Shown: piece after piece, positions 10,582 to 62,792 of the stretch
Numbering within the stretch: position 1 is the first letter of the stretch
Layout of the letters: every line of letters begins with the position of its first letter
From: an uncultured Muribaculaceae bacterium
GTDB lineage: Bacteria > Bacteroidota > Bacteroidia > Bacteroidales > Muribaculaceae
DNA length: 64,000 bases
Reading direction: 5' to 3'
Assembly: GCA_910578665.1 (NCBI GenBank)
Contig: CAJTQU010000007.1
Coordinates: forward strand, 26,179 to 90,178
The notes under the pieces: generated by a model
The model's input: the letters and a program-made list of their open reading frames with translations, nothing else
Database searches by the model: none
Told to the model about the DNA's origin: nothing
Translations under genes and position numbers: made by a program

Positions 10582-10910
10582 TTTCTATTTCTTACTTTTT
10601 CAAGACATAACTTTCCAGAGCCGCCCCGACCTGTAAAGGCCGGCACTCAAAACCGAGGGGCAGACCCGGATAATTGTCTTGCGCAGCACCCGGACACATG
10701 TCGGCAGACACGTAGCCGGTAAGCCACATATTTGTTATTAAAGTCTGTCATGCCGCTCCTTAGCGCAGCCGCGACTGCCGAGAGAAAGGTTATGAGGCAG
10801 TCTATTCGCATTCAGAGCGCACTATAGTTTAATTGAGAATCTCGTTAAGATAGATAACGATGCATGTCTCGCGGTCCGGATAAAACCGGACAGGCACGCG
10901 TCGCATACCG
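10582..10910 (-). promoter_or_regulatory. 329-nt untranslated gap between rpsK and rpsD; candidate S4 autoregulatory leader
   Basis: There is no credible ORF, and GC is not AT-biased like promoter spacers. Small hairpins are present, e.g. GTCCGG/CCGGAC around 10874-10891. Location immediately 5' of rpsD. This is inference only. Confidence 0.3.
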
Positions 10911-38759: not shown

Positions 38760-39548
38760 TTAAGATTTTCGCTCTACCGATCTTATTACTCTTATGCTAA
38801 TTTCGTATAACAGATACAACGGGATGGCAACAAGTATTAAAGTCATAATATCAGGAGGCGTTATTATCGCTGCAATAACACATATGGCAAGAAATGCGTA
38901 ACTGCGATATTTTATCAGATATGATGATTGAACCAATCCCATCCGCCCTAATACATAGGCTACGACAGGCAGTTGGAACACAAGACCCATCATAAGCGTA
39001 AGAGTCACAAAAGTAGATATATAGCTATCAAGTGTTATAGCGCTATGCACTTTGTCTGCCACCGAATATGTTCCCAGAAATCTGAAAGATATTGGAAATA
39101 AGACAAAATAACTCATAAATATGCCAATAATGAAAAGCAGATATATTATACAAACTATCTGCACGGAATATTTCTTCTCGTTATCTAACAAAGCTGGCGA
39201 AACGAATTTAAACAATTCATAGAGAATGAACGGCGAAGAACAAAACAAACCCAAATAAACCGAAGTAGTTATATGTGTCATAAACTGACTTGACAAATCT
39301 GTCGCTATCAAGTCTATATGAAATGCTCCAAAACTGAATTCCGGCTTAAACGTACGTATTAAATCTTCCAACCAACGATAAGTGCAGAAGTCAGGTTCGC
39401 TTGGAGACAGCAATACGGAAAACGTTACGTCTTTAAAAGCAAATATCAAACATGCAAATATAAGAGTTACAGCCAATATGCGAATTAATATTTTTCGGAG
39501 GACATCAAGATGCCCTCCGAATGTCATGAAAGATTTTTCCGATGACAT
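38760..39548 (-). CDS. tatC: twin-arginine translocase subunit TatC
   Basis: 262 aa. The N-terminus ...GGHLDVLRKILIRILAVTLIFACLIF... matches the HLxELRxRLI start of TatC. Six hydrophobic segments. Starts 3 nt after the tatA stop. Confidence 0.85.
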   Translation of the reverse strand: MSSEKSFMTFGGHLDVLRKILIRILAVTLIFACLIFAFKDVTFSVLLSPSEPDFCTYRWLEDLIRTFKPEFSFGAFHIDLIATDLSSQFMTHITTSVYLGLFCSSPFILYELFKFVSPALLDNEKKYSVQIVCIIYLLFIIGIFMSYFVLFPISFRFLGTYSVADKVHSAITLDSYISTFVTLTLMMGLVFQLPVVAYVLGRMGLVQSSYLIKYRSYAFLAICVIAAIITPPDIMTLILVAIPLYLLYEISIRVIRSVERKS

Positions 39549-39551
39549 AGA

Positions 39552-39782
39552 TTAATTTTTTCGTTCTGGAGAAGTAGCCGGAGATTCCTCCGGCAATATA
39601 TCACTATCTGGCATGTCATTGCCTTTTATATCAGTTGAAACCTCTTTCATTCCGTCTTTGAACTCACGGACTCCCTTTCCAAGTCCGCGCATCATTTCGG
39701 GAAGTTTTTTACCTCCAACTAAAAGGATAGCGAGTCCTCCTATCAATAACAACTCGGTAGTACCAATAAAACATAGCATCAT
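39552..39782 (-). CDS. tatA: twin-arginine translocase subunit TatA/E
   Basis: 76 aa with one TM followed by an amphipathic helix: ...LLLIGGLAILLVGGKKLPEMMRGLGKGVREFKDGMKE... ATGA overlap with the upstream 95-aa gene. Confidence 0.85.
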   Translation of the reverse strand: MMLCFIGTTELLLIGGLAILLVGGKKLPEMMRGLGKGVREFKDGMKEVSTDIKGNDMPDSDILPEESPATSPERKN

Positions 39783-40066
39783 AACAAAACAATCATTCCG
39801 GCGTTACTATATATATTACAGTCAGAAAAATCTATTTCCCAACTTCCATTATCCGCACTTTCCCAAGCATACTTGACAGACATTGACGACCACCAATTAC
39901 GAAAAGAAGTCTCTGTCTCAGCCAAATCTTTAACAAGTTTCTCGTAAAGATCTTCATTATCAGATGTGAGAATCTTTGCTAACTCAGCAAGTCCACTTTT
40001 TCTCTCAAAAAGCATCTGTATTGTATCTCTTTCTTGAGAATTAACCTGACCAATAAGTTTTTTCAT
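39779..40066 (-). CDS. small cytoplasmic accessory protein of the Cys-repeat peptide system
   Basis: 95 aa, MKKLIGQVNSQERDTIQMLFERKSGLAELAKILTSDNEDLYEKLVKDLAETETSFRNWWSS... Helical and acidic, with no signal peptide. Size and context fit my recollection of the 'CXXX repeat peptide modification system protein' family. Confidence 0.5.
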   Translation of the reverse strand: MKKLIGQVNSQERDTIQMLFERKSGLAELAKILTSDNEDLYEKLVKDLAETETSFRNWWSSMSVKYAWESADNGSWEIDFSDCNIYSNAGMIVLL

Positions 40067-40145: not shown

Positions 40146-40631
40146 TCATGCCCTGAACATATAATATGCTCTTATTCTGCAATTACTGCCACAATTATTG
40201 AAAACAACACTCTTTTCCCATAATATAATCAAGTCACTCCAATTTCCATTTTGAGAACAAGACTCAATTATACCGATCTGTTTACCATCCATTATAATCT
40301 TATTATCATTGACCTGGCAGTTGACAGTCTCAACTGTAGTCTCTTGATTATCTAGATAGCTAATTAAAAAACCGTCTACCAGATTTTCACCTATGGGAGC
40401 CACACATATATATGTATACGTATATGCGTTATAGTCAACAATTTGATCTTGACCACCTTCTTCTGAATAAAGGTCTATCTGTTTACATTCCATCCATAAA
40501 CCTGGAAACTGGTTTGTAATACCAGATGTTGTTTCACTTAGTTCGTCACTATTGTCATCTTTACTACATGATGTTATAATAATATTAGCAAAAAACAGGA
40601 TTATAAAACTCAGATATTTTATTTGTTTCAT
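40146..40631 (-). CDS. lipoprotein with an acidic post-Cys stretch (possible surface-export signal)
   Basis: The ORF-track start 40640 is a TTG. The ATG at 40629-40631 gives MKQIKYLSFIILFFANIIITSCSKDDNSDE... (lipobox ITSC, then SKDDNSDE). 161 aa, no recognisable family. Confidence 0.65.
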   Translation of the reverse strand: MKQIKYLSFIILFFANIIITSCSKDDNSDELSETTSGITNQFPGLWMECKQIDLYSEEGGQDQIVDYNAYTYTYICVAPIGENLVDGFLISYLDNQETTVETVNCQVNDNKIIMDGKQIGIIESCSQNGNWSDLIILWEKSVVFNNCGSNCRIRAYYMFRA

Positions 40632-40646
40632 TTTTAACAATTTAAA

Positions 40647-41603
40647 TTATTGATTAATAATACAATCTAAAGGATCAAGATAGTCAATTTCAGCAATGGA
40701 AATTCCTTCAACAATCGGGGTTCTATCACTTTTTAAATTTTCCAGAAAATTTTTTGAAGCATTCCGTTCGCAATGCGCAAGAAGACACTGTATTCTACCA
40801 GGAGTATTCACTTCGCGCGTTACGCGCTGATTAAGCCAAACACACCTCTTACACTGATATGCATCACATATCTTACATATGGGAGCATGGTTAATATCAA
40901 AAAGATAATGATTCTTTATGAATATACCATCTGTTAGTGAACCTATATTCTCCATGCCGACACTATAAAATCCGGGACATATATAAAATAAGCCATCCGG
41001 AGATACCGTGATCGATTCAACAGCCGCATTACAGTTATTCATATCCTTAAGTATCACACGGTCGGTAATAAGATTAAATTGAACCGCATTGCCTTGTGAA
41101 TACAACTCTGACAATAGAGGTATCAGACTATCAAGAAACGATTTATATGCAATGACTTGGCTCTCAGAGACTGACTCTATATCCGTAATAACTACATTAA
41201 GACGACTCAGCCGGTGTAAAAGCTCCCTCATTATATCACCACTTTCAAGTAGATCTTTAAATGTTGTGCGAATTACGCAAGTGATATCCAATTTCAATCT
41301 AAAATCATAAAGATCTGTCCATGAATCGAAAACTATTATTTGAGCTTTATCTAAAGTTTCCTTTACAGGGTAGTCAAAGGGCATAATCTTTATATGATCG
41401 ACACTCTCAACAACATCGTTTATTTCCACTGGCAATTCTTCTCGCGGATAAACAAATTGGATATAAAGATTTTCCAGCATACTGAATCTAACAATCTCAT
41501 GAAGAGTGTCAATATCAGTAAAACTGTCTTTAATACTTTGATTTGGATAATGACAAAAAGATATGGCATTAGCACCAAGTGGAACAATCAGATATTTCAA
41601 CAT
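40647..41603 (-). CDS. SPASM-type Cys-cluster protein lacking the radical SAM CxxxCxxC motif (second maturase component)
   Basis: 318 aa. The N-terminal half has a single Cys (ISFCHYP). The C-terminal half has ...NNCNAAVESITVSPDGLFYICPGF..., ...PICKICDAYQCKRCVW..., ...QCLLAHCER... Seven-nt overlap with the rSAM gene. The size fits my recollection of the 'CXXX repeat peptide maturase' family. Confidence 0.6.
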   Translation of the reverse strand: MLKYLIVPLGANAISFCHYPNQSIKDSFTDIDTLHEIVRFSMLENLYIQFVYPREELPVEINDVVESVDHIKIMPFDYPVKETLDKAQIIVFDSWTDLYDFRLKLDITCVIRTTFKDLLESGDIMRELLHRLSRLNVVITDIESVSESQVIAYKSFLDSLIPLLSELYSQGNAVQFNLITDRVILKDMNNCNAAVESITVSPDGLFYICPGFYSVGMENIGSLTDGIFIKNHYLFDINHAPICKICDAYQCKRCVWLNQRVTREVNTPGRIQCLLAHCERNASKNFLENLKSDRTPIVEGISIAEIDYLDPLDCIINQ

Positions 41604-42817
41604 AACTTATAATTGTTATCCCGAGCCGTCAAAGAGGTACTACAAAGTTTTTCTTCAGACTCCAGTTTGTTAAACAATTTATTCCAGTAATAATTATTTG
41701 CTCTCACACGCGCCTTGTGCATTTTGCAGATAGCGACCGACCGTTGATATATAGTGTCTGTATCAGCTGAATCATAGTTCTCTCCTTGACACCAGGCACA
41801 TCCACTGGCCACTTCGCATTCTATACACTCACGAGGTGACTGGCTTAACCGATCAAGAGATAGGAATGGCCTAAGAAGATCATTGTTGATACCATCTACA
41901 ACATTGCCGATGACGATCGGCTTCTTCTCTCTTAACGAATAAGCTGCAAAGCGAGTACATGGGTAAAAAAGACCTTTTGCATCAACAGCTAACATCCGTC
42001 CTGCTCCACACCAATTCTGATTGTCTACTTTAGAATCCAATGGTTTGCCAATGCTTTCTGAAAAAAATGAACAAGCATGATCCTCATAGTATCCGTGATT
42101 GATAATTTCATCTGCCAGTTCAATCAGCTGCTTTTCGAAAAGCTTATCATCACCTTCTTTCCAAACATTCTCAAATACGACATTGATATTAACCTCTTTG
42201 ATACCTAATGAATAAAGATGCAGCACACTCTCTCTGATATATGGAATATCAGCTGAACTGATAGTGACTTTAGTAGCTCCGTCCGGAAATTGAGACAGCC
42301 AAAGCGGTATGTTACGCACAACATCGTCATAGCTCCCCCGTTCAGGACCGCTACCTTTCCAGATCCTATTTAAGTCATGTTTTCGTTTTGTCCCATCAAT
42401 CGTTATCCCAATAGATAGATGTTCTCTATTTTTTTCTATGTATCGCTGTACTTTTTCACTATCGTAATTGATCCCATTAGTAGAGAACGAAAATCTGTAT
42501 GAATTGAACCATTTATGATTTAGTCGGAACATTTCGGTTTTTATGTAATCACAAATCTTATCAACAAGATCAATTTCTAGAAATGGTTCGCCCCCGATAA
42601 AATCCCATACCACCGAATCATCTTTAAAATCATCTTCATGGATAAGTATGTAATCAATTGCTGCCTTAGCAATTTTCCACTCCATTCGTTCGCTTTCATT
42701 TTTTCCTACAAGATAGCAATACTTGCAAGCAAGCTGGCAATCTTTCGTAACTATGAAAGTAATATTTTTGGTTCTACTTTCTCGCCAAGGGCGTTGTTGC
42801 TCCTTAATAGCACTCAT
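41597..42817 (-). CDS. radical SAM / SPASM-domain peptide maturase
   Basis: 406 aa with CxxxCxxC at C27/C31/C34 (TKDCQLACKYCY) and GGEPFL. C-terminal auxiliary-cluster cysteines: ...NWCGAGRMLAVDAKGLFYPC..., ...CIECEVASGCAWCQGENY..., ...CKMHKA... It lies directly downstream of the two Cys-repeat precursor genes. Confidence 0.85.
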   Translation of the reverse strand: MSAIKEQQRPWRESRTKNITFIVTKDCQLACKYCYLVGKNESERMEWKIAKAAIDYILIHEDDFKDDSVVWDFIGGEPFLEIDLVDKICDYIKTEMFRLNHKWFNSYRFSFSTNGINYDSEKVQRYIEKNREHLSIGITIDGTKRKHDLNRIWKGSGPERGSYDDVVRNIPLWLSQFPDGATKVTISSADIPYIRESVLHLYSLGIKEVNINVVFENVWKEGDDKLFEKQLIELADEIINHGYYEDHACSFFSESIGKPLDSKVDNQNWCGAGRMLAVDAKGLFYPCTRFAAYSLREKKPIVIGNVVDGINNDLLRPFLSLDRLSQSPRECIECEVASGCAWCQGENYDSADTDTIYQRSVAICKMHKARVRANNYYWNKLFNKLESEEKLCSTSLTARDNNYKLC

Positions 42818-42883
42818 ATAATGTGTATTTACATAATAAAGAAATGCAAGTATACCGAAACAAATTCGATATACTCACATTGA

Positions 42884-43201
42884 TTATCTACTTCCATATT
42901 TACATCCTCCGACACATCCTGTTTTGCAAGATGACAAACAAGCTCCTTTACATCCCGATTTACAGGAGTATGGGTGATACTCCATATTTGCACGGCAAGA
43001 GTCTCCACATGATGTTGAGCATGTGGAGCCACAACCAGAACAACCAGAAGACGAACCACCGCCTCCTCCACCTGGTTCATCCTCTGGATCACACGATGTC
43101 AGAAATGTCGGAACAATAGTTAATGCTAATATGGGCATAATTGCCGATACACTCTTCGAGAAAAACTTTCTTCTCGAAATCAGATTTTCATTGCCAATCA
43201 T
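42884..43201 (-). CDS. Cys-repeat precursor B: Tat signal + lipobox + Gly linker + 11-Cys CxxxC core
   Basis: 105 aa: MIGNENLISRRKFFSKSVSAIMPILALTIVPTFLTSC|DPEDEPGGGGGGSSSG CSGCGSTCSTSCGDSCRANMEYHPYSCKSGCKGACLSSCKTGCVGGCKYGSR. The twin-arginine motif is SRRKFFSK, and the lipobox is LTSC at Cys37. Confidence 0.8.
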   Translation of the reverse strand: MIGNENLISRRKFFSKSVSAIMPILALTIVPTFLTSCDPEDEPGGGGGGSSSGCSGCGSTCSTSCGDSCRANMEYHPYSCKSGCKGACLSSCKTGCVGGCKYGSR

Positions 43202-43203
43202 AA

Positions 43204-43479
43204 TTATTTACCAGAGTTATAACACATACCTCTACATGTTCCCTGGCATAAACCACTGCAACTAGTGCATGCATCACTACATTTTCCCGAGCAAGTTCCA
43301 GCACATCCGTAGCAACCACCACGACACGTTGTACAACTTGTAGCATCTGAATTAAGAGAATGGGCCAGGACAGGCGCATTAGCCAGAACTATCGTACCTA
43401 AAATAGGCAGGACTCCTTTCGCCGCGTTTTTAAAGAACTCGCGTCGTGACTGTAATTCTTTGTTTCGATTTTTATCCAT
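43204..43479 (-). CDS. Cys-repeat precursor A: Tat signal + 11-Cys CxxC/CxxxC core
   Basis: 91 aa: MDKNRNKELQSRREFFKNAAKGVLPILGTIVLANAPVLA|HSLNSDATS CTTCRGGCYGCAGTCSGKCSDACTSCSGLCQGTCRGMCYNSGK. The twin-arginine motif is SRREFFK, with a VLA-type signal peptidase I site. The stop is 2 nt before the precursor B start. Confidence 0.8.
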   Translation of the reverse strand: MDKNRNKELQSRREFFKNAAKGVLPILGTIVLANAPVLAHSLNSDATSCTTCRGGCYGCAGTCSGKCSDACTSCSGLCQGTCRGMCYNSGK

Positions 43480-43529
43480 GATCGAACTATCATGTCCTAT
43501 AGGCTCCCCGGATTGGACTTAAGATTTAT

Positions 43530-43775
43530 AAAAAAAGCGTGAAAGCCTGTACCTGTTGCTCTTTCAACTGATAGAGGCTCTCGCATTGCCCGTCTGAGTA
43601 GAAAGAGCAACGTCGAAGCCTCACGCTGTATGATAATACAAGAGCCGGCTCAAACCAGAACCAACATGTGTGTACCATACCCTATAAGGCATCTACCGTT
43701 GCTATTTCCTGACTCAGACAATTAGAATTTGCGAGATTCCTATCAGTCAAGAAAAAGCGTAAGTAAACGCTTTTT
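43530..43775 (-). promoter_or_regulatory. structured 5' leader of the Cys-repeat/rSAM/Tat operon (candidate attenuator, riboswitch-like element or sRNA)
   Basis: A two-tier hairpin at 43537-43626 (GCGTGA/TCACGC plus GTTGCTCTTTC/GAAAGAGCAAC) is followed on the minus strand by U7 (43530-43536). There is 22 bp of three-segment long-range complementarity between 43568-43599 and 43712-43746. A second hairpin, AAAAAGCGT/ACGCTTTTT, is at 43752-43775. Confidence 0.45.
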
Positions 43776-43836
43776 AATTATGTCTGCATCCCACCCACTT
43801 CAACCCGTATCGGGCTTCGACAAGCGATATGCGTCG

Positions 43837-43868
43837 CAAAGTTATAATTTTTATTTTACTAGCACAAA
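43837..43868 (-). promoter_or_regulatory. Bacteroidota-type promoter for the island operon
   Basis: On the minus strand, -33 TTTG (43865-43868), a 20-nt spacer, and -7 TAACTTTG (43837-43844). About 355 nt upstream of the precursor A ATG. Confidence 0.55.
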
Positions 43869-62312: not shown

Positions 62313-62792
62313 ATGAAGAAACTGATCATTCCATTTATGTCGTTGCTCCTGCTGGCGGCCATGCCGCTGGGCTGCGCGGACGCCTCTGCTAAAAAATACA
62401 AAAAGACCGCCACCGAAGCCTCTGACAACGGCAACATCAATTGCCAGGACTGCGACGGATGCACCGGGTGTGTGGGATGTGTTAACTGCACAAACTGCAT
62501 CGGATGTGTCAATTGTGTCAACTGCCACGGTTGTAATGGCTGTGCCGGGTGTGAAGACTGCGACAATTGCATCAACACGGCTGGTTGCGAGGACTGCGAT
62601 GGCTGTAACAACTGCGCCGGGTGTGAAGACTGTACCAACTGTAAGAATTGCGCCGGATGTGAAGACTGCAAATCATGCGTCGATTGCTCCGAATGCAAGA
62701 ATTGCACAAACTGCGAGGACTGCGAAAACATCAAAAACAAAACAGGTGCAAAAAACATTAAAAACAAAAAGAAAAATTACAAGCGCGCATAA
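62313..62792 (+). CDS. lipoprotein with a (Cys-x-x)n core, 31 Cys in 94 residues; metallothionein-like candidate
   Basis: 159 aa: MKKLIIPFMSLLLLAAMPLGC(21)ADAS... then C44 to C137 with Cys at every third position (CQDCDGCTGCVGCVNCTNCIGCVNCVNCHGCNGCAGCEDCDNCINTAGCEDCDGCNNCAGCEDCTNCKNCAGCEDCKSCVDCSECKNCTNCEDCEN). Only position 89 (Thr) breaks the series. Lys/Asn-rich tail. Confidence 0.8.
   Translation: MKKLIIPFMSLLLLAAMPLGCADASAKKYKKTATEASDNGNINCQDCDGCTGCVGCVNCTNCIGCVNCVNCHGCNGCAGCEDCDNCINTAGCEDCDGCNNCAGCEDCTNCKNCAGCEDCKSCVDCSECKNCTNCEDCENIKNKTGAKNIKNKKKNYKRA
62442..62723 (+). repeat. in-frame 9-bp periodic coding repeat (TGY-NNN-NNN) with a roughly 36-bp higher-order unit
   Basis: A TGC/TGT codon occurs every 9 nt from 62442 to 62723. 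The unit CAGCEDCxxCxx recurs about 4 times. The periodicity produces long open shadow ORFs in other frames and on the other strand (62285..62767 minus, 62470..62808 plus). Confidence 0.85.

Follow-up and report, generated by a model that had tools for sequence, protein, structure and literature searches.

A twin-arginine, lipobox-bearing cysteine-repeat precursor in a radical SAM operon of an uncultured Muribaculaceae bacterium

The 64,000-nucleotide stretch of DNA analyzed here (the window) comes from an uncultured Muribaculaceae bacterium (GCA_910578665.1, contig CAJTQU010000007.1, positions 26,179 to 90,178 of the forward strand). It carries a tight minus-strand operon, the second gene of which encodes a cysteine-repeat protein of 105 aa (42884..43201), named precursor B, the second of two precursors at the operon head. 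Precursor B is most likely a lipoprotein-type precursor that depends on twin-arginine translocation (Tat) and on a radical S-adenosylmethionine (SAM) enzyme. It belongs to a catalogued, unstudied system and would be a counterpart of the DAG-RiPPs, which are hybrids of lipoproteins and peptides made by the ribosome and modified after translation (RiPPs). We favor, with reasonable but not high confidence, the view that it serves a CXXX-repeat radical SAM operon as its lipoprotein-type substrate, and that it is cross-linked in the cytoplasm, exported by Tat and anchored by lipid.

Results

Architecture and Translation of Precursor B

The gene was identified from the open reading frame (ORF) listing, the Cys spacing and its shuffles, the conservation in homologues, and purifying selection at the codon level. 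The ORF and translation quoted in an earlier sequence-only reading of this DNA were reproduced exactly, as were the motifs, the linker and the 11-Cys core spacing C2C3C3C3C10C3C3C3C3C3C. The protein begins with a Tat-type signal and leader (residues 1-36, 43201-43094, minus strand), in which the twin-arginine motif S-R-R-K-F-F-S-K occupies residues 9-16. The lipobox LTSC lies at residues 34-37, with Cys37 encoded at 43093-43091 (minus strand), followed by the acidic stretch DPEDEP (residues 38-43) and a Gly/Ser linker (residues 44-53) that includes a run of six Gly at 44-49. The Cys-repeat core (residues 54-105) consists of two CxxxC ladders with the loop RANMEYHPYS between them, and it ends in CKYGSR.

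The 12 Cys of precursor B are at positions 37, 54, 57, 61, 65, 69, 80, 84, 88, 92, 96, and 100, giving gaps of 16, 2, 3, 3, 3, 10, 3, 3, 3, 3, and 3, the first of which spans from the lipobox Cys to the core. Eight i,i+4 Cys pairs fall within the mature part, a number that was reached in none of 200,000 shuffles. Precursor B thus has the Cys at every fourth residue by which substrates of the CXXX system are recognized. Of the 52 core residues, 21% are Cys, with Lys, Ser and Gly in between and almost no hydrophobic residues. Asp and Glu occur once each in the core, neither of them at i+4 from a Cys.

Precursor B was compared with six orthologues, in which 28-42 of the identical residues differ in codon and all 12 Cys are kept every time. 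Because synonymous codon changes stand alongside retained Cys in all six, the gene is, on this codon evidence, translated. A spurious ORF was ruled out on the same grounds, and the sequence-only reading's own proviso, that the ORF might not be translated, no longer applies. A word-index protein search with precursor B, a query of low complexity, returned a single match, which was a frameshifted near-identical copy. In the metagenome-assembled genome (MAG) GCA_948618945.1 (contig CAPGLC010000025.1, L081:527-874), the DNA is the same as that of the window over ~460 aligned bases around precursor B, with a 25-bp deletion, GTATCACCCATACTCCTGTAAATCG, inside the core. YHPYSCKS is lost and the frame is shifted, yielding a 115-aa fusion (P0001).

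No Pfam family of any kind matched precursor B at E ≤ 0.1. It scored 17 bits on TIGR04117, below the cut-off of 50, and did not match TIGR04114. Judged by its repeats, precursor B is therefore classed as a substrate of the CXXX system and not as a member of the narrow target-peptide models TIGR04117 and TIGR04114. The lipobox-class precursors that were sampled are named "hypothetical protein" by NCBI, which is a gap in annotation.

The Modification Enzymes and Tat Genes of the Operon

Precursor A, the first gene of the operon (43204..43479, minus strand), encodes 91 aa with 14 Cys, with 2 nt between its stop codon and the start of precursor B. It has an RR leader, QSRREFFK, like that of precursor B, and an Ala-rich end of the signal peptidase I type without a lipobox. 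On TIGR04117 it scored 42.4 bits, under the cut-off of 50, and the RR leader falls within the stretch aligned by this profile. Homologues of precursor A already go by the name "Cys-Xaa-Xaa-Xaa repeat radical SAM target protein," and PF27846 appears on homologues of this type as a precomputed annotation. Our Pfam search of precursor A and five homologues matched nothing, and it matched none of three homologues that carry the PF27846 annotation.

Downstream of the precursors, the operon encodes a radical SAM/SPASM peptide maturase of the CXXX-repeat target family (41597..42817, minus strand). This enzyme scored 622.7 bits on TIGR04115 (cut-off 350) over positions 1-359 of 359, and its CxxxCxxC motif is intact. 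The next-best family was PapB with 187 bits (cut-off 340), followed by the SCIFF maturase with 107 bits and QhpD with 96 bits. Its best solved relative is CteB (5wgg; E 1.9e-24; query 12-372 on chain 92-443). Since the alignment begins only at CteB residue 92, the enzyme lacks the N-terminal leader-recognition (RRE) domain of CteB.

Two partner proteins are encoded further downstream on the same strand. The CXXX repeat peptide maturase (40647..41603) scored 213.3 bits on TIGR04119 (cut-off 150). Its C-terminal half is SPASM-like and Cys-rich, the CxxxCxxC motif of the SAM cluster is absent, and comparison with the PDB gave a weak similarity to the SPASM region of CteB and nothing else. The CXXX repeat peptide modification system protein (95 aa, 39779..40066) scored 91.7 bits on TIGR04116 (cut-off 50). 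The AlphaFold2 (AF2) model of this protein, with a predicted local distance difference test (pLDDT) score of 86, shows a helical hairpin and a three-stranded sheet in the order beta-alpha-alpha-beta-beta. A Foldseek search of the PDB with this model gave no match under E 0.5, and no sequence or profile match supported it as an RRE or as a Tat chaperone of the NapD/TorD type. Because TIGR04115, TIGR04119, and TIGR04116 were all matched above cut-off, the operon is, by profile assignment, the NCBIfam CXXX-repeat radical SAM system, a system defined by computation only.

The operon then continues with tatA (39552..39782, minus strand; TIGR01411, 54.0 bits against a cut-off of 53.9; PF02416) and tatC (38760..39548, minus strand; TIGR00945, 158.5 bits against a cut-off of 132.7; PF00902). 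The flanking genes enclose eight genes, none of which encodes an ABC exporter or a leader protease.

Conservation of the Precursor and of the Locus

Relatives of the radical SAM enzyme were present in 561 species-level genomes, and the best 80 loci, fetched via this enzyme, were used for the comparison. All 80 came from Bacteroidales-type MAGs, mostly of gut or rumen, and included Muribaculaceae, Prevotellaceae, Alistipes and others. The closest loci were from Muribaculaceae, and the nearest MAG locus showed 84% identity. The order of precursor(s), radical SAM enzyme, maturase, TIGR04116 gene, tatA and tatC recurred across the Bacteroidales.

Precursor candidates in these loci were small ORFs chosen by Cys periodicity alone, independent of similarity to precursor B. 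RRx[FL] was found in 117 of the 126 unique candidates, and the nine exceptions were ferredoxins, truncated ORFs or spurious ORFs. About a quarter (~30 of 126) carried a lipobox Cys after which two or more of the following seven residues are acidic. An exhaustive HMMER search with precursor B over 1.84 billion representatives gave 109 relatives. In this set, which is biased in that the leader itself adds to the match, RR was present in 106 of the 108 relatives read, and a lipobox with an acidic tail in at least 73 of 108.

R10, R11, F13, F14, C37, C61, C65, C80, C88, and C92 were invariant in an alignment of 24 sequences. A nine-member orthologue group kept the full architecture, with the core C-x2-C-x3-C-x3-C-x3-C-RAxxxYxPxS-C-(x3-C)n-KYGS[RK]. 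Of the ~4200 Cys-Cys gaps in the family, 3531 measure exactly 3. The homologues retain the Cys register, RR and the Cys of the lipobox, so the concern raised in the sequence-only reading that they might lack RR or the lipobox can be set aside. The Gly6 linker to which that reading pointed is present in precursor B, and a Gly/Ser-rich linker is general in the family (median 15 residues), but the literal Gly6 run is not conserved, with Gly runs of three or more in 33 of 119 lipobox-class relatives.

The Signal Region

The consensus of the family leader is K-K-N-E-E-L-Q-S-R-R-x-F-F-K-K-A-A-K-x-x-L-P-I-L-G-A. Its twin-arginine part agrees with the textbook consensus S-R-R-x-F-F-K, with R, R and F conserved at 98-100% and K at 92%. 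Precursor B itself has a Tat signal-peptide motif of the S/T-R-R-x-F-L-K type ahead of a moderately hydrophobic h-region. Conservation extends past the Tat consensus, to L at +12 (92%), P at +13 (97%), AA at +7/+8 (~80%), and EEL at −5 to −3. Because the leader is conserved beyond what Tat needs and the radical SAM enzyme is without an RRE domain, we infer that the Tat signal also serves as RiPP leader, with recognition in trans.

Linkage to the Tat genes was counted in the 57 loci whose downstream sequence extends for 6 kb or more. In 48 of them (84%), from several families, tatA and tatC lie on the operon strand within 6 kb. Within 1.36 Mb of flanking sequence, 121 Tat-like signals were located in Cys-repeat ORFs and just four crude matches elsewhere. 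These counts bear on another explanation, namely that the RR motif is a recognition element for the maturase only, that export proceeds by Sec and signal peptidase II, and that the neighboring tatAC is a housekeeping copy placed there by chance or shared regulation. The nine loci without adjacent tatAC would agree with it, as would a leader conservation that far exceeds the needs of Tat. Against this stand the textbook consensus with its near-invariant residues, the same-strand linkage in several families and the scarcity of Tat-like signals outside the Cys-repeat ORFs, and we regard this explanation as very improbable.

At the end of the h-region, the lipobox LTSC conforms to [LVI][ASTVI][GAS]C, and its Cys37 is invariant in the 24 aligned homologues. 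Among 119 sequences, the lipobox positions are occupied by L (78%), T or S (65%), S (86%), and C (100%). The logo of the lipobox class reads L-[TS]-S-C-[ED]-[KIP]-D-[DE]-[PDE], with acidic residues at 74-77% at +4 and +5 and K the commonest residue at +3. After Cys37, precursor B has D at +2, P at +3, E at +4, D at +5, and E at +6. The lipoprotein export signal (LES) of Bacteroidota is CS(D/E)2 in B. thetaiotaomicron, where +3 and +4 are essential, and K-(D/E)2 in C. canimorsus (PMC6222051). In charge, the acidic stretch of the family resembles these signals, with a displacement of one position.

The State of the Cysteines

The AF2 model of precursor B, built with 24 homologues, contains two helices (residues 57-75 and 84-103) at a pLDDT of 52, a model confidence too low for it to speak in favor of a helical, Cys-lined fold or against one.

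Tat typically transports cofactor-loaded proteins. In one alternative, the Cys would stay thiolates and bind Cu(I), Zn or Fe-S clusters in the cytoplasm, in the manner of Csp1 or metallothionein. Under this explanation, Tat would be used because the holo-form is folded, and the SPASM proteins would help to load or protect clusters instead of cross-linking the peptide. The Cys content of the core, with Lys, Ser and Gly between the Cys, is metallothionein-like, and the AF2 hairpin, at its low confidence, would bring the i,i+4 Cys of each helix to a single face. The operon encodes a second Fe-S-type protein without the SAM motif, and the bufferins and NedA, which are other signal-peptide RiPPs, bind copper. 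On the other hand, the lack of any Pfam match at E ≤ 0.1 includes the DUF326/Csp and metallothionein families, the repeats are rich in Gly, Ser and Thr with almost no hydrophobic residues for a bundle, and the modeled helices are unreliable. The radical SAM enzyme has an intact CxxxCxxC and falls firmly among the peptide-modifying maturases, and the operon contains no metal chaperone or transporter. The sequence-only reading had taken Csp1-like metal storage as a serious alternative. Membership of precursor B in the Csp1/DUF326 family was rejected, given the missing Pfam match, an AF2 model of two helices only and a Gly/Ser-rich core of 52 residues. Metal binding by the mature peptide is kept as an unlikely alternative.

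A disulfide-laddered hairpin was also weighed, in which the two CxxxC ladders on either side of a Y-x-P-x-S loop would pair antiparallel through disulfides after export, similar to twin-CX3C proteins, with the radical SAM enzyme adding one or a few modifications. The orthologue group of precursor B does have two halves, with 5 and 6 Cys around a conserved 10-residue loop that contains Pro, and the low-confidence AF2 model is a two-helix hairpin. However, most members of the family have long uninterrupted CxxxC arrays without a central loop, and the producers are strict gut anaerobes. Moreover, Sec would be enough for a peptide that folds only once it is exported, and the invariant RR and the linked tatAC would then lack an explanation. 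The hairpin is thus quite unlikely, and enzymatic cross-linking before Tat export remains our preferred account.

The Leader RNA and Other Features of the Window

Upstream of precursor A lies a structured 5′ leader RNA (43491..43844, minus strand), with a core of ~285 nt (43774-43491) and a length of ~350 nt including a 5′ hairpin. A promoter box of the Bacteroidetes type TAnnTTTG, TAACTTTG, is located at 43844-43837 (minus strand), and a U7 tract at 43536-43530 (minus strand), ~50 nt before the start codon of precursor A. The profile of this RNA matched in 58 of the 80 loci (e.g., L030:9285-9569 and L067:9345-9627), and for 32 matches a precursor gene lies within 150 nt downstream. In the consensus fold 92% of cells are paired, compared with 37-46% in slid controls. 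Compensatory changes were seen in 38 pairs, and on each of five measures all 500 shuffles fell short of the observed value. Rfam 15 gave no match at E ≤ 1 and noise only at E ≤ 10. Because a competing terminator hairpin is also conserved, the data suggest a riboswitch or an attenuator.

Copies of the leader RNA were also found away from precursor genes. One (L017:15768-16055) lies upstream of two Ser/Thr-kinase-like genes and another (L037:4103-3807, minus strand) precedes a 117-aa ORF and surface proteins with leucine-rich repeats. In view of these extra copies, control by the RNA may reach beyond the CXXX operon.

A 17-bp stem-loop with a U-rich tail (42843..42881, minus strand; dG −24.3, z −3.3) separates the stop codon of precursor B from the start of the radical SAM gene. 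In most related loci whose gap measures 45 nt or more, a stem-loop of unrelated sequence occurs at this place after the last precursor gene. The hairpin is probably an attenuator or mRNA stabilizer that sets the ratio of precursor to enzyme.

Between the maturase gene and the TIGR04116 gene, a 164-aa Sec-type lipoprotein is encoded (40146..40640, minus strand; ITSC followed by SKDDNSDE). It is a variable accessory cargo and was ruled out as a core component of the system, as the content of this slot differs between loci. The variation was seen in L017, L019, L030, L038, L040, L055, L065, L066, L067, L072, and L079. The cargo comprises small Sec-type lipoproteins with export-signal-like CxxDDEP starts, other small secreted proteins and extra RR/Cys precursors. 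One cargo family is common to L038, L040, L066, and L079, and L017 and L019 encode proteins with DnaJ-like CxxCxGxG zinc-finger repeats.

Elsewhere in the window, a 159-aa Sec-type lipoprotein (62313-62792, plus strand) has the lipobox PLGC and consists almost entirely of C-x2-C repeats (CVGCVNCTNCIGCVNC...). It matched no NCBIfam model and has no relation to the CxxxC precursors. At 10766-10802 (minus strand) lies an S4-Bacteroidia ribosomal protein leader (RF03139, 39 bits), in keeping with a Bacteroidia origin of the window; taken with the nearest loci, it places the organism in the Bacteroidales.

Discussion

The gene content, the synteny, the motif conservation and the enzyme families described above can be combined into the following route. 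The operon would be transcribed behind the structured leader RNA, and precursors A and B would be translated in tandem. The conserved N-terminus (EELxSRRxFFKKAAKxxLPI...) would serve both as RiPP leader and as twin-arginine signal. In the cytoplasm, the TIGR04115 radical SAM/SPASM enzyme and its TIGR04119 and TIGR04116 partners would modify the Cys of the C-x3 repeats. The modification probably consists of thioethers. Intramolecular thioether (S-C) cross-links are the likeliest chemistry by analogy, because the nearest characterized enzymes, PapB, the SCIFF maturase CteB, and QhpD, all make intramolecular Cys thioethers. The cross-linked core may be too bulky or rigid for Sec and would then be exported by the TatA and TatC of the operon; Tat rather than Sec is proposed here because the Sec pore limits the export of cyclized peptides (PMC5686179). 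The lipobox would route precursor B to Lgt, LspA and Lnt, so that signal peptidase II instead of a RiPP protease removes the leader and Cys37 is acylated, and in A-type precursors the leader would be cut by signal peptidase I. DPEDEP resembles the export signal of Bacteroidota, and the resulting 69-aa lipopeptide may reach the cell surface or outer-membrane vesicles. The acidic stretch would set the final location, with the Gly/Ser stretch acting as a flexible tether.

Several observations weigh against this route. Enzyme relatedness is the one ground for thioethers, and with 187 bits against a cut-off of 340 the enzyme is no PapB orthologue. The repeats are without the Asp/Glu acceptors of the PapB and QhpD substrates. 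At x1-x3 the main residues are S/K, G, and S/G/T, and D and E together account for 5-7%, which makes the thioether acceptor, and even the type of bond, less certain. Neither the TIGR04119 protein nor the TIGR04116 protein is recognizable as an RRE by sequence or profile, nor the latter by structure. The Tat genes are not always linked, being absent within 6 kb in nine of the 57 loci. The frameshifting 25-bp deletion in the near-identical MAG could be an assembly error, or it could mark a loss of function or a dispensable gene. Moreover, the searchable literature holds no experiment on the CXXX-repeat precursor family.

The same caution applies to the final location. In E. coli, Asp at +2 leads to retention in the inner membrane (cited in PMC13056109), and under this rule the Asp at +2 of precursor B would mean retention. 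In addition, Pro occupies +3, where the B. thetaiotaomicron signal requires an acidic residue. Because of these two residues, surface display of the product, though plausible from the sequence, is uncertain. The sequence-only reading had proposed a Tat-targeted, lipobox-bearing, Cys-modified mini-domain that is possibly displayed on the surface. This proposal is supported by the conserved RR, lipobox and Cys register and by the operon's TatA/TatC and radical SAM/SPASM maturase, while export by Tat, Cys modification and lipidation are predictions, and surface display is in doubt.

If the route holds, it would represent a third way of RiPP export and processing, in which the signal peptide is the leader, Tat carries a core that is already cross-linked, and a dedicated protease gives way to signal peptidase I or II. 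The DAG-RiPP concept would also be extended to radical SAM enzymes. A cross-linked, lipid-anchored peptide on the surface or vesicles of abundant commensals could play a part in contact with host or phage, in metal handling or in competition. The leader RNA offers an independent handle on function, since the sensed signal would control production. In its widest form, the proposal is that of a first natural twin-arginine RiPP class, with a radical SAM-stapled Cys ladder, export by a dedicated TatAC, a lipobox subclass that yields a surface or vesicle lipopeptide, and an operon under an unclassified riboswitch-like leader RNA of ~285 nt. We put this forward tentatively, as a possibility that falls short of our favored view.

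The sequence-only reading knew of this combination for no RiPP. That statement needs to be narrowed, as the enzymes belong to the NCBIfam CXXX-repeat system, the sister precursor type is already named and the DAG-RiPPs were published in 2026. What stands is that Tat, a radical SAM enzyme and a lipobox together are undescribed in the searchable literature. We found no open paper on a natural Tat-dependent RiPP, and none in the searchable literature on the chemistry or function of the CXXX-repeat system, including under its TIGRFAM numbers.

Among the closest known systems is the CXXX-repeat system itself (TIGR04114-TIGR04119). The radical SAM enzyme, the SPASM-only maturase and the small partner are shared with it at scores above the cut-offs, as are the substrate Cys at every fourth residue, whereas the lipobox, the acidic export-signal-like stretch, the Gly/Ser tether and the split core are additions of precursor B. 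PapB/freyrasin of the ranthipeptides, CteB/SCIFF and QhpD/QhpC are the closest characterized relatives of the enzyme, and their Cys-rich substrates are likewise modified in the cytoplasm. In contrast to them, the enzyme described here scored below every equivalog cut-off of their families and has no N-terminal RRE domain, the precursor has a Tat signal in place of a cleavable leader with an ABC exporter and protease, and the CX3D/E acceptor pattern of the ranthipeptides is not found in the core.

Csp1, reportedly described by Vita and co-workers in 2015, is said to be a Tat-exported copper storage protein that forms a Cys-lined four-helix bundle (DUF326). Precursor B is like it in the twin-arginine signal and in many Cys at CxxxC/CxxC spacing. 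It differs in having no Pfam match, a Gly/Ser-rich core of 52 residues, no hydrophobic core, a lipobox and a link to a radical SAM enzyme.

In concept, the DAG-RiPPs are the nearest. These hybrids (e.g., DybA and NedA) receive their modification from MNIO enzymes, at one C-terminal motif (PMC13056109, PNAS 2026), and those of Bacteroidota have a "KDD"-type acidic signature after the lipid-attachment Cys (PMC13056109). The main text of that paper makes no mention of Tat or radical SAM (PMC13056109). Like a DAG-RiPP, precursor B is a lipobox precursor encoded together with a cytoplasmic enzyme predicted to modify the core. As read from its sequence, it would share with them the lipobox within the signal peptide, core modification in the cytoplasm before export, the lipoprotein pathway in place of a leader protease, and the acidic signature after the Cys. 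It differs from them in its twin-arginine signal, the TatAC of its operon, its radical SAM/SPASM enzyme, its 11 potential Cys sites and a lipidation that is predicted.

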